DNA of 35,371 nt from an uncultured archaeon (GTDB taxonomy: Archaea > Asgardarchaeota > Lokiarchaeia > Sigyniarchaeales > SOKP01), in contig CAZGJX010000037.1 of assembly GCA_964525635.1 (NCBI GenBank), positions 1 to 35,371 of the forward strand, written 5' to 3'. The notes beneath the pieces were generated by a model. It was not told the DNA's origin and made no database searches. It saw nothing but the letters and a program-made list of their open reading frames with translations. The stretch's first letter is position 1, and each line of letters opens with the position of its first letter. The translations under genes were made by a program, and so were the position numbers. Below are positions 11,953-17,388 of this stretch, one piece after another.

Positions 11953-12357
11953 TTATTTAATATTGAATGTTAACAATTTATTTAATGTTAAGATATAATA
12001 TTCTATTTTTTCTTTAAATATCTCATAATGAGTAAATCTTCCTCTTTTCCATCCTCGAATTAATCCTATTTTCTCTAACTCTCTTAAATGATGGGAAATA
12101 GTAGATTGAGATTTGTCTAAAATTGCTTCTAACTCACATACACAATAATCTTTACTCAATAATACTTTTATAATTTTCAAACGTTCTTCATTGCCTAAAA
12201 TATTACAGAAATTGAGAATATCTGTAAAAAAATCATTTTTATATAAATTTTTCCCCAAATTTTGTAATTCTTTAAAATATTTTGAAACATCAATATTATT
12301 CATATCGACACAGCTTTCTAATGTCTCTATTAATTCTATTTGTCTCTTTTTGTTCAA
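11953..12357 (-). CDS. arsR: ArsR/SmtB metalloid-responsive repressor
   Basis: RLKII...YCVCEL...SQSTISHHLREL (alpha3 CVC site); divergent from acr3; TTG start with AGGAG. Confidence 0.9.
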   Translation of the reverse strand: MNKKRQIELIETLESCVDMNNIDVSKYFKELQNLGKNLYKNDFFTDILNFCNILGNEERLKIIKVLLSKDYCVCELEAILDKSQSTISHHLRELEKIGLIRGWKRGRFTHYEIFKEKIEYYILTLNKLLTFNIK

Positions 12358-12524: not shown

Positions 12525-13553
12525 ATGATCGAACAAGATACAAAAAAAAAAGAACTGGGTTTTTTTGAAAAATATTTACCTATTTGGATCGGATTTTGTA
12601 TTTTTATTGGTATTCTTTTTTCAAGAGTTTTACCAGAATTAAGTGCTGCGATTGATAAATTTAAAATAGGAGAAATATCAATACCTATTGGCATTTGTCT
12701 CTTCTTAATGATGTATCCCGCGATGTTAAATCTTCAATTCTCAGAATTAAAAAAATTAGGTAAAAATCCTAAACCCATAATTTTAACACTCATTTCTAAT
12801 TGGCTGATTGCACCCTTTATTGGACTAGCTATGGCAAATCTATTTTTGCAAGGTGAAGAGGAATTAATCTTTGCAATTATTTTACTTTCAAGTTCACCTT
12901 GTACCGCAATGGTTTTAGTATGGGGTTGGATGGCTAAGGGTAATCAAGAACAAAATGTTTTGAATACAAGTCTTAACACAATTACAATAATATTTTTATA
13001 TGTCCCAATGGTATCTCTCTTATCAGGAATTCAGAACATTCATATTGACTGGATTCTTTTAGGTCTCTCTTTAATCTTTTTTATTGGACTCCCTCTATTA
13101 ATAGGTATTATTTCCAAAAGGATAATTATAAAGGTAAGAGGTAATGATTGGTTTCAAAACATCTATAGACCAATTGTAGGTAAAATATCTATTATAGCAT
13201 TATTGACAACATTAGTAATTTTATTTTCATTAAATGGAAATGTTTTAATTCAACATCCTGATTTGATGGTTCTTATTACAATTCCTCTCTTACTGGGATT
13301 TATAATAGTTGTTGGTTATAACATTTTAATTACTAAATTATTTAAACTAAAATATCGTGAAGCAATTATTACTGTGATTATTGGTTCATCAAGCCATTTT
13401 GAAATTGCAATAGCTACAGCAACAACCATGTTTGGATTAGGATCTATCGCAGCACTCGGAACTACTATGGGATTATTTTGGGAAGTTCCTGTAATGCTCT
13501 TCTTAGTTTATTTGGGCAAGTTTCTTAAAAAGCGAGATTTTTGGGAGTTTTAA
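12525..13553 (+). CDS. acr3: Acr3 family arsenite efflux transporter
   Basis: FFEKYL..W, LFLMMYPAM, PCTAMVLVW, SSHFEIAIA and EVPVML motifs. Confidence 0.95.
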   Translation: MIEQDTKKKELGFFEKYLPIWIGFCIFIGILFSRVLPELSAAIDKFKIGEISIPIGICLFLMMYPAMLNLQFSELKKLGKNPKPIILTLISNWLIAPFIGLAMANLFLQGEEELIFAIILLSSSPCTAMVLVWGWMAKGNQEQNVLNTSLNTITIIFLYVPMVSLLSGIQNIHIDWILLGLSLIFFIGLPLLIGIISKRIIIKVRGNDWFQNIYRPIVGKISIIALLTTLVILFSLNGNVLIQHPDLMVLITIPLLLGFIIVVGYNILITKLFKLKYREAIITVIIGSSSHFEIAIATATTMFGLGSIAALGTTMGLFWEVPVMLFLVYLGKFLKKRDFWEF

Positions 13554-13682: not shown

Positions 13683-13735
13683 GAAATTAAATTAACTCAA
13701 TTTAAAAATATTTTAATAATTAGAGAGGTGATATT

Positions 13736-14080
13736 ATAAAAAAAATAACTTTTCACATTAGTATGCCCTATAGTGGATTATCTGAAGGAAAAATCTTTAA
13801 CATAGAAATTAAGGATGATGGTACATTCCCCGAAGCATTAGCCATGGTTGATAAATATATTATGAATAATCCAGAAGAATCAATTTTTCCCTTATTTGAT
13901 GGATTTATTCATAATTACTTACAATTATTTTGGAATCCTAAAGAGAATAAAATATATGAGGATTGTGGTTTAATGCCTTATGGTCCTGGAAGAAAATTTA
14001 TACCATTAAGAGATAATCCCGATTTTATCTTATATCCCAATAGCATTATTGATTTACAATTAGATCCAGGATGCTGATGA
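13736..14080 (+). CDS. MoaD/ThiS/ubiquitin-like beta-grasp protein, candidate selenoprotein ending ...DPGC-U
   Basis: The ORF track starts at ATG 13763, but the frame extends to ATA 13736 just after GAGGTGA. Pattern KITFHI...KIFNIEIKDDGTFPEAL...ILYPNSIIDLQLDPGC, then TGA TGA (14075-14080) and a downstream SECIS-like hairpin. Confidence 0.6.
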
Positions 14081-14200
14081 GATAAAATAAAAAAAAAATT
14101 AGATATAGGGGAATTTAAAAATATACTGAGAAAAAAATATGGAAAAGATAACAAACACTTTAAACATTATTTTAAATAAAATAAATATTAAAAAAAAAGA

Positions 14201-14236
14201 ATGAAATCTTTTAAAAAACGCTTGTGAAAGATTGAC
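14201..14236 (+). promoter_or_regulatory. Eukaryote-type SECIS element candidate
   Basis: AUGA core (14201-04), 12-bp helix with one A.G mismatch (AAUCUUUUAAAA/UUGUGAAAGAUU), apical loop AACGC, and GA at 14234-35. Confidence 0.7.
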
Positions 14237-14331
14237 GTTAGGATTGCGGCCTAAATTTTTTAATATATTTTACACTTTTAATAATATTTTATAGAAAAAA
14301 GATTTTTATCTAAAATAGAAATTGATTAATT

Positions 14332-14769
14332 ATGAAAAAACTTAATGTTCTATTTTTATGTTCACATAATCAAGCACGTAGTCAGATGGCAGAAGCATTC
14401 TTAAAAAAATATGCCGGTGATCTCTTCAATGTTTATAGTGCTGGTTTTGAACCAAAAGGAATTCATCCATATACCAGAATTGTAATGGAAGAAAAAGGAT
14501 ATGATTTAAGTGAACACAGTTCTAAAGATTTAAAAAGATATTTGGGGGAAGTTCATTTTGGAATTATTATTACTGTTTGTAAAAGAGCAAATGAATTATG
14601 TCCTACTATTCCAGGGGTATCAACAAGGATATTGTGGGATATTAAAGATCCATCTAGTTTTAATGGAACAGAAGAAGAAAAAATAGATAAATTTCGCCAA
14701 GTTAGAGATATTTTAGAAAAAAAAATAAAATCTTGGTTAAAGGAACAAAATATTAAAGTCAAATTATAA
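14332..14769 (+). CDS. arsC: Thioredoxin-dependent arsenate reductase (LMW-PTP fold)
   Basis: P-loop FLCSHNQARSQMAEA, resolving Cys pair TVCKRANELCP, and WDIKDP. Confidence 0.92.
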   Translation: MKKLNVLFLCSHNQARSQMAEAFLKKYAGDLFNVYSAGFEPKGIHPYTRIVMEEKGYDLSEHSSKDLKRYLGEVHFGIIITVCKRANELCPTIPGVSTRILWDIKDPSSFNGTEEEKIDKFRQVRDILEKKIKSWLKEQNIKVKL

Positions 14770-16800: not shown

Positions 16801-17388
16801 ATGAATGAAGATTTGCTTGAAAAAGTAGAAAATTTTGCGTTTAATAACTCTGATATTGATGATATTCATGGATTTAATCATGTTAAAAGGGTTTATAATT
16901 TATGTATTGATTTAGGGAAAAATTTAAATGCTAATTTGTTAACATTAAAGATTTCTGCTTTACTCCATGATATTGGTAGAAAAAAAGAAAATATAAAAGA
17001 AGATAAAACAAATCATGCTATTATTTCTGCCAAAATGACAGAAGAATTTTTAAAAATGTATAATATTAGCCTAACTGAAATAGATTTGGATAATATTATT
17101 CATTGTATCATAACTCATTCTTTTTCTAATAAAATCAAACCTAAGACTATTGAAGCTAAAATCCTCTCTGATGCAGATAAACTTGATGCAATTGGAGCAA
17201 TTGGATTATACAGGACAATTGCATTTACAACATTGAAAGAAGGGGGTATAAATAAAGTAATTGAGCATATAGAAAATAAAATAATCAAATTAAAGGATCA
17301 ATTATACTTAGATATTTCAAAAAAAATAGCTAAAAAAAGACAAAAAATTATAATACAATTCTATAATGAAATAAAATCAGAAAAATGA
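16801..17388 (+). CDS. HD-domain phosphohydrolase
   Basis: HGFNHVKRV, ALLHDIG and DADKLDAIGAIG. Confidence 0.93.
   Translation: MNEDLLEKVENFAFNNSDIDDIHGFNHVKRVYNLCIDLGKNLNANLLTLKISALLHDIGRKKENIKEDKTNHAIISAKMTEEFLKMYNISLTEIDLDNIIHCIITHSFSNKIKPKTIEAKILSDADKLDAIGAIGLYRTIAFTTLKEGGINKVIEHIENKIIKLKDQLYLDISKKIAKKRQKIIIQFYNEIKSEK

Follow-up and report, generated by a model that had tools for sequence, protein, structure and literature searches.

A probable double-selenocysteine protein of predicted beta-grasp fold, encoded between acr3 and arsC in a Lokiarchaeia genome and possibly engaged in arsenite handling

The subject of this account is a small gene at positions 13736-14179 of a 35,371-nucleotide stretch of DNA (contig CAZGJX010000037.1, positions 1 to 35,371, assembly GCA_964525635.1; this whole stretch is referred to below as the window) from an uncultured archaeon of the class Lokiarchaeia (Sigyniarchaeales, SOKP01). 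The gene is embedded in an arsenic-resistance (ars) cluster: an ArsR-family repressor is encoded divergently at 11953..12357 on the minus strand (Pfam HTH_5, E = 3e-16), and on the plus strand the gene has the Acr3 arsenite efflux permease directly upstream of it (12525..13553; Pfam SBF, E = 6e-40) and, downstream, an ArsC of the low-molecular-weight-phosphatase type (14332..14769; Pfam LMWPc, E = 4e-19). What gene callers annotate between these two is a short form, ending in Gly-Cys; the corresponding table-11 open reading frame (ORF) at 13763..14077 on the plus strand has LQLDPGC as its C-terminal residues. The TGA that closes it is immediately followed by another (TGA TGA, 14075-14080, plus strand), and the same frame then stays open for 32 more codons (14081-14176) until a TAA at 14177-14179, with a hairpin resembling a selenocysteine insertion sequence (SECIS) element behind it. 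The preliminary description of this DNA had recorded exactly this ORF end, double TGA and open frame, and had proposed a selenoprotein. Read in that way, the gene specifies 147 residues: a predicted beta-grasp domain (residues 1-113, 13736..14074; AlphaFold2 model) whose last residues are Asp-Pro-Gly-Cys113, a directly adjacent pair of selenocysteines (Sec), Sec114-Sec115, at the two TGA codons, and an extension (14081..14179, stop included) that makes the motif Cys113-Sec114-Sec115 internal. The sequence evidence set out below makes it almost certain that the two TGA codons are read in this way.

What distinguishes such an arrangement from an ordinary ORF that happens to stop twice? TGA is an ordinary minority stop in the source genome (GC content 26.8%): among 1557 ORFs with 300 codons or more, 1126 end in TAA (the most usual stop, as had been noted earlier for the window), 227 in TAG and 204 (13%) in TGA. 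A genome-wide reassignment of TGA is excluded by these last. The plainest alternative is that nothing is recoded at all: the gene would end with Gly-Cys at its double stop, and conservation downstream would belong to an RNA element or to a separate small ORF. The short form is the one that gene callers annotate, tandem stops do occur in nature, and we calculate that a frame stays open for 32 codons by chance about 6% of the time at this base composition (27% GC); taken singly, the open frame is weak evidence. What carries the observation far beyond chance is the relatives of the gene, in which the TGA-TGA is conserved, a coding signature follows it, and a covarying SECIS stands behind it. The selenoprotein candidacy is supported by the same three features.

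A word-indexed protein search returned 30 relatives, every one from a Loki-type metagenome bin. Two database entries that have been translated with TGA as tryptophan read Gly-Cys-Trp-Trp and continue into a peptide matching the extension of the window gene. Scanning a single genome for each species yielded 62 loci, 58 of them complete; in all 58, at identities down to about 45%, Gly/Ala-Cys-TGA-TGA leads into 31-41 conserved codons; the consensus of the extension is EKVKNRLDIGxFKxxIRKKYGKxNExFAHY. Over the first 30 codons past the TGAs (57 sequences), nucleotide diversity at codon positions 1, 2 and 3 is 0.26, 0.18 and 0.45, synonymous changes make up 61% of the single-base codon differences (18% would be expected from random change), and stops number 0, 146 and 190 in frames 0, 1 and 2, respectively. 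No start codon or Shine-Dalgarno (SD) sequence was found between the TGAs and the extension in any of these sequences. Because the extension has a coding signature without a separate start or SD of its own, the ribosome is taken to read through both TGAs. This in-frame, protein-level signature abutting the TGAs argues directly against termination at the double stop, as does a class of paralogs (type C, described below) with a third conserved TGA two codons earlier.

The distribution of the gene is broad within narrow limits: it is present in 138 of 400 genomes searched across the phylum, every carrier belonging to one class, the Lokiarchaeia, and in 117 of the 134 genomes of the window's taxonomic family. 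Among the matches listed for these 138 genomes, every full-length one has two or three in-frame TGAs; the lone match with one TGA spans only model positions 1-118.

The hairpin behind the gene is a lokiSECIS (14201..14235, plus strand). Elements of this kind have been defined as AUGA, a 9-bp stem, an 11-nt loop with five adenines first and G last, and then GA (Mariotti 2016, PMC4989117). The window element conforms to the published features throughout, with 0 mismatches: AUGA lies at 14201-04, the 5' side of the stem at 14205-13, the 11-nt loop AAAAACGCUUG at 14214-24, the 3' side at 14225-33 and GA at 14234-35, and all 9 pairs of the stem, AAUCUUUUA with UGAAAGAUU, form. Its AUGA is 121 nt past the second TGA and 21 nt behind the TAA stop. 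In 53 of 57 loci the SECIS is found 112-139 nt past the first TGA; it overlaps the stop codon or follows it at a distance of between a few bases and about 30 nt. An alignment of 49 elements has 95.7% of stem cells paired and compensatory changes at 7 of the 9 pairs; in 500 shuffles the values of the real alignment are never reached, and with sliding the controls drop to 41-54%. The pattern match and the covariation in 49 homologs thus turn what had been called a SECIS-like hairpin into a true lokiSECIS, and its presence behind the gene is a further point against simple termination.

A strict pattern scan of the 4.45-Mb genome produced 5 matches: the window element, one behind a VhuU/FrhA gene with the motif FDCULSCAAH (G000:C86:15945, minus strand), one behind HdrA-VhuD (G000:C109:7887, minus strand), in which VhuD has two Sec, and two weaker ones. 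A family-specific covariance model scores the window SECIS at 66.1 bits as its sole match in the genome, with 150 of 13,599 candidates scored; it is so specific that it misses the SECIS elements of other genes, which the simple pattern scan did recover. The single-sequence fold is not significant (z = -1.3), and an Rfam gathering scan of the window gave no match, lokiSECIS included. Directly behind the SECIS and before arsC there is a small hairpin (UUAGG...CCUAA) with a run of six U (14238..14261, plus strand), where the transcript may end or be processed. A look through the public sequencing runs turned up no RNA data set containing this DNA. The search for terminator-like sites found none; the sigma-70 promoter scan is a method unsuited to archaea.

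The machinery that the preliminary description had wanted confirmed (tRNA-Sec, SPS, PSTK, SecS and EFSec) is all present in the genome. The tRNA-Sec gene (59.9 bits; anticodon TCA according to ARAGORN) adjoins the gene for SepSecS (379 bits against Pfam PF05889, E = 1.2e-145 against TIGR03531); PSTK is found at full length with 178 bits, under the equivalog cut-off, and EFSec with 256 bits; SelD, itself with one in-frame TGA, lies at G000:C26:33700-34494. SepSecS was detected in 133 of the 138 carriers of the Sec-Sec gene, the five exceptions being genomes that are 66-95% complete. Nearly all families of the Lokiarchaeia have SepSecS, and in families of the phylum without it the gene is never present (400 genomes). 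A gene confined in this way to a class equipped for Sec is again not what a mere double stop would lead one to expect, and the possibility that neither TGA is recoded appears very improbable indeed. Decoding of both UGA codons, as Sec114-Sec115, can be accepted with high confidence.

The 5' end of the gene presents a separate problem. The first ATG in the window is at 13763, and starting there would cost the protein its first strand, IKKITFxIS, which is conserved 5' of that codon and predicted with high confidence. The upstream frame is closed in the window by a TAG at 13721-23, and 22 loci have an in-frame stop just upstream, without a canonical start ahead of strand 1. Codons 2-10 vary as coding sequence does (diversity 0.26, 0.18 and 0.51 at the three codon positions) and include an AGY/TCN serine switch. 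An SD-like GAGGTGAT can be read at 13725..13732 (plus strand), and 51 of 54 loci have the same core, or a near variant, 6-10 nt 5' of the corresponding first codon. That first codon is ATT in 28 of the 54, ATA in 7, ATG in 5, ATC in 1, GTC, GTT or GTA in 7, TTA in 3 and TTT in 3. On account of the strand conserved upstream of ATG, the SD-like core, the upstream stops and the coding-type variation of codons 2-10, translation in this family appears to begin at a near-cognate codon; for the window gene, homology to the relatives' first codon points to ATA at 13736..13738 (plus strand) or possibly to ATT at 13733-35. The GTG within GAGGTGAT was considered as a start and rejected: it belongs to the SD-like core itself, and many loci have it in another frame or with a stop codon after it. 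In deposited annotations the gene begins either at this GTG or too far downstream.

The protein has no family match in Pfam (E up to 1) or NCBIfam (E up to 10), ThiS/MoaD and Urm1 included, and its profile matches just 41 representatives in 1.84 billion proteins. An AlphaFold2 model built with 39 homologs (predicted local distance difference test score, pLDDT, 87.2; predicted template-modelling score, pTM, 0.86) begins beta-beta-alpha and continues with more strands up to 103-109; the extension is predicted to form three helices, at 114-119, 124-135 and 143-146. Foldseek gave Urm1 and SAMP1 as best matches, with a probability of 0.95-0.98 but an E of about 0.02. Two runs of VIA-align, one of them independent of Foldseek, gave Z scores of 6.3-6.8 for SAMP1 (best alignment: Z 6.8, 86 residues, root-mean-square deviation 3.8), 6.1-6.5 for CysO, 6.5 for the beta domain of transcobalamin and 5.4-5.6 for MoaD. 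The structural matches are all beta-grasp, over residues 1-116, so that the predicted fold is a beta-grasp nearest to SAMP1, CysO and MoaD, on scores that are modest though in full agreement. In the alignments Gly112-Cys113-Sec114-Sec115 falls at the Gly-Gly end of the carriers, bearing out the earlier suggestion of a beta-grasp fold with PGC in place of the Gly-Gly tail. Two versions of that tail had been offered: Gly-Cys-Sec-Sec plus extension is the one that stands; a C-terminal Gly-Cys-Sec of the thioredoxin-reductase kind does not, the motif being internal and the extension conserved. Homologs that end in GC-TAA or GC-TAG and lack a SECIS, a genome that lacks Sec machinery, and a fold other than beta-grasp had been named as findings that would speak against the original proposal; what is found is TGA-TGA with the SECIS, the machinery and, by prediction, the beta-grasp. 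Invariant residues in the homolog alignment include Asp110, Gly112, Cys113, both Sec, His144 and Tyr145.

The structural company that the protein keeps suggests another function, that of a sulfur or selenium carrier, with a mobile chalcogen held as a persulfide or perselenide on Cys/Sec instead of a thiocarboxylate, for instance for thio- or seleno-arsenicals or for cofactors. The nearest folds are indeed sulfur carriers, the motif coincides exactly with their Gly-Gly position, and one Sec-less homolog adjoins a gene for a NifU_N scaffold. However, the motif does not have the free C-terminus of a carrier, a look at the neighbours within about 4 kb revealed neither an E1-like adenylating enzyme nor a sulfurtransferase, and membership of ThiS/MoaD or Urm1 is not detected at the level of sequence; a chalcogen carrier is improbable.

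The family has paralogs of three types. In type A, to which the window gene (a single copy in its genome) belongs, the motif is Pro-Asp-(Ser/Pro)-Gly-Cys-Sec-Sec; type B has His-Ala-Asp-Sec-Sec; type C has Ser-Ala-Sec-Gly-Sec-Sec and thus three Sec, the third at the additional conserved TGA referred to above. The types often stand in tandem (L020:4450-4995, L024:4440-4986, L018:3330-3890, L041:2040-2597), and in one of these loci, L018, three SECIS elements lie within 1 kb. At both L020 and L024 the type A gene has no SECIS of its own and the type B gene after it has one, which suggests that the two genes share it, as HdrA and VhuD do. (A note on provenance: the records of L024, DATKTW010000027.1, and L064, JAENXI010000157.1, contain a Loki-type gene and ars neighbours, yet are labelled as a Nanopelagicaceae bacterium and as Bathyarchaeota, respectively; mis-binning or mislabelling is the probable reason.) A distant clade, 30-50% identical, retains Pro-Asp-Ala-Gly-Cys-Sec-Sec, the extension, and a SECIS-like hairpin at equal distance. 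Two homologs lack Sec (L080:1274-1747, P0054; L081:181-576, P0069): they keep the Cys and the extension and have Val-Ser or Ile-Thr at the Sec sites. P0054 is the one adjoining the NifU_N gene, and its contig also has a gene for an Arf/Ras-type GTPase.

An Acr3 homolog is encoded upstream of the gene, on the same strand and within about 4.3 kb, in 35 of the 62 loci; an ArsR-family repressor is present in 28 of 62, and ArsC lies directly downstream in 11 of 62. ArsM-like methyltransferases (Methyltransf_31) are directly upstream in several loci, and ferredoxin genes are upstream in 15. In about 15 loci a fusion of some 550 residues, combining an S-adenosylmethionine-dependent methyltransferase with a CdhD-like (corrinoid-protein-like) part, and then a 2x[4Fe-4S] ferredoxin, stand between acr3 and the Sec-Sec gene (as examples, L049:1581-3281 with L029:3180-3569); this pair may serve as a module for the corrinoid-dependent methylation of metals or metalloids. 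Immediately upstream of the Sec-Sec gene, about 24 loci encode a 96-residue protein in which Asp-Ala-Cys-Ala-Cys is conserved (L014:3663-3950, L049:3670-3957); it has no Pfam or NCBIfam match, and the window lacks it. In 24 loci a YdjM-family membrane protein is encoded after the Sec-Sec gene, and an HD-domain protein is found in 14 of 62: at 16801-17388 in the window, and 1.2-3.7 kb downstream in the 13 others. In four loci the next gene specifies a small, zinc-ribbon-like GDCCVxC (seleno)protein (NF041374, 56 bits), which has a cysteine/selenocysteine-rich motif and in which four in-frame TGAs are conserved (L078:3545-3769, L079:1509-1730, L018:4584-4790, L027:2175-2348); since the only SECIS of L027 lies behind this second gene, the Sec-Sec gene and the GDCCVxC gene of that locus probably share it. 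ArsA is not encoded on the window contig; matches to its family occur in the genome only on contigs C41 and C154.

What might a Sec-Sec protein do in such a setting? The explanation that best covers the whole is that of a selenoprotein capturing arsenite in an ArsR-controlled operon, which we rate as slightly better than an even proposition. Its steps are as follows. Comparison with the relatives shows that the lokiSECIS directs Sec insertion at both UGAs via tRNA-Sec, PSTK, SepSecS and EFSec, and that the last strand of the predicted beta-grasp runs into Asp-x-Gly-Cys-Sec-Sec and thence into the helical extension. The adjacent selenols, with Cys113 as third soft ligand, would then bind As(III), or a related soft metalloid, with high affinity. 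Made from an operon under the control of ArsR, the protein would capture arsenite that had entered directly or been made by ArsC, and would buffer it or hand it over to Acr3, which would export it; an ArsM-like methylase may receive it instead in relatives. The role would be that of an ArsD-like chaperone, built on selenium and on a different fold.

The case for As(III) as the ligand is made by the ars context together with precedents of chemistry: As(III) favours three soft ligands, ArsD presents the vicinal pair Cys12-Cys13 plus Cys18, and arsenic trioxide hits the Cys-Sec pair of thioredoxin reductase. A number of observations weigh on the other side. Three directly consecutive residues make for a strained geometry around one As(III) centre. 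Cys113 is not universal, its place before the Sec pair being taken by His-Ala-Asp in type B and by Sec-Gly in type C. Z scores below 8 are modest support for the fold. No Cys-for-Sec variant was found among the homologs, which is unusual for selenoproteins: the check for Cys/TGA interchange that had been proposed at the outset reveals none, the Sec pair being invariant and the Cys replaceable, with the two Sec-less homologs carrying Val-Ser or Ile-Thr. The distant clade, finally, has a RagA-type GTPase, an aldehyde:ferredoxin oxidoreductase, a flavoprotein and an enoyl-CoA hydratase as neighbours, and no ars genes; with that clade outside ars loci, the ancestral chemistry may have been general redox, not arsenic-specific. 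An As(III)-binding role, considered by itself, falls a little short of an even chance.

That last point leads to a different use of the same residues. In a redox shuttle, the second of two roles that the preliminary description had offered (the first being an arsenite chaperone), a Sec-Sec diselenide (or a selenenylsulfide with Cys113) would interconvert with the selenols, supplying electrons to ArsC, to ArsM-like enzymes or to others. The majority of known selenoproteins are redox proteins (PMC13188914), and the UxxU pair of SelL is described as a diselenide redox centre in work cited in PMC4989117. The adjoining oxidoreductase genes of the distant clade, the ferredoxin genes upstream, and the position of ArsC directly downstream, in the window as in the loci already counted, all fit. 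However, the window ArsC has Cys10, Cys83 and Cys90, read from its translation, as a relay of its own, and ArsC of the Cys-relay kind is normally recycled by thioredoxin; ArsC is missing from most loci, Acr3 being frequent; and no reductase that might recharge the shuttle is a conserved neighbour. These considerations make a redox shuttle weaker than arsenite binding, and we think it rather unlikely; it stays in contention because the distant clade lies outside ars loci. For arsenite capture, one can go further and imagine a dedicated selenium metalloid chaperone, in which a Cys-Sec-Sec "claw" replaces the Gly-Gly of the ubiquitin fold, captures arsenite and feeds it to Acr3 or ArsM, its synthesis throttled by the non-AUG start and by the selenium-dependent double UGA. 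This fuller proposal is tentative, and we would sooner bet against it than for it. If it were true, this would be the first selenium-dependent component of arsenic resistance in archaea, and in a selenoprotein family without a cysteine counterpart.

The literature counts seven Asgard selenoprotein families (Huang 2024, PMC11227280; 2026 review, PMC13188914), and the selenoprotein genes with a lokiSECIS are SelD, FrhA/VhuU, FrhD/VhuD, HdrA, PrxL, AhpF-N-like and DsbA-like (Mariotti 2016, PMC4989117; Huang 2024, PMC11227280). Neither a CUU motif nor a ubiquitin-, beta-grasp- or MoaD-like entry is among the Asgard families in PMC11227280 and PMC13188914; the present family is uncatalogued in the published Asgard lists. 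A literature search for adjacent or tandem selenocysteine brought up nothing relevant. It is as widespread as several of the seven, all of which were found through homology to known selenoproteins. Catalogues made in this way miss families that have no Cys counterpart, and no Cys-for-Sec counterpart of this one has been found, which would explain the omission. Hundreds of deposited genomes have the gene annotated in truncated form, cut at its 3' end by the TGA and at its 5' end by the non-AUG start. The interest of the family extends beyond its own function. Two UGAs (in some paralogs three), consecutive or nearly so, are in all likelihood decoded by one eukaryote-like SECIS, and at certain loci two genes seem to rely on a single element; tandem decoding of this kind bears on processive Sec insertion before SBP2 existed. 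The ubiquitin/MoaD fold, for its part, would gain a new chemistry at its tail position.

How does the gene compare with systems already known? With other lokiSECIS genes it shares the element in the 3' untranslated region, close behind the stop or overlapping it; multi-Sec genes, and the sharing of a SECIS (HdrA-VhuD), have precedents there as well. It differs from them as a new family, with a fold new among selenoproteins, a directly adjacent Sec pair and no Cys homologs found, and in a context of metalloid resistance rather than of hydrogenase or heterodisulfide metabolism. It resembles SAMP1, MoaD, CysO and Urm1 in the predicted fold of residues 1-116 (Z 5.2-6.8, 77-88 residues aligned) and in having a reactive chalcogen motif where these have Gly-Gly; unlike them, it is without Gly-Gly, a free C-terminus, a family sequence match or a nearby E1-like partner, and it has a 32-residue helical extension.

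The likeness to ArsD is functional, and inferred: both are small soluble proteins of ars operons, with vicinal soft ligands plus a third (Cys113-Sec114-Sec115 as compared with Cys12-Cys13-Cys18) and a proposed hand-off of As(III). ArsD, in contrast, has a thioredoxin-like fold, uses cysteines only and serves ArsA, whereas here a predicted beta-grasp would present selenols, with Acr3 adjoining. The Gly-Cys-Sec-Gly centre of animal thioredoxin reductase, an enzyme known to be avid for arsenicals, likewise has Gly-Cys-Sec with adjacent S and Se; that motif is the flexible, extreme C-terminal tail of a flavoenzyme and has one Sec, whereas the present one is internal (residues 112-115 of 147), has two, and is attached to no flavin domain. 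The last comparison is with bacterial metal-linked multi-Sec proteins that NCBIfam defines, namely GDCCVxC (NF041374), MbdU and SaoC, listed in PMC13188914. No relation of sequence or fold connects them with the present protein, which is archaeal and relies on a eukaryote-like SECIS; yet they are, like it, small proteins of resistance loci in which Sec is probably a ligand for a metal or metalloid.

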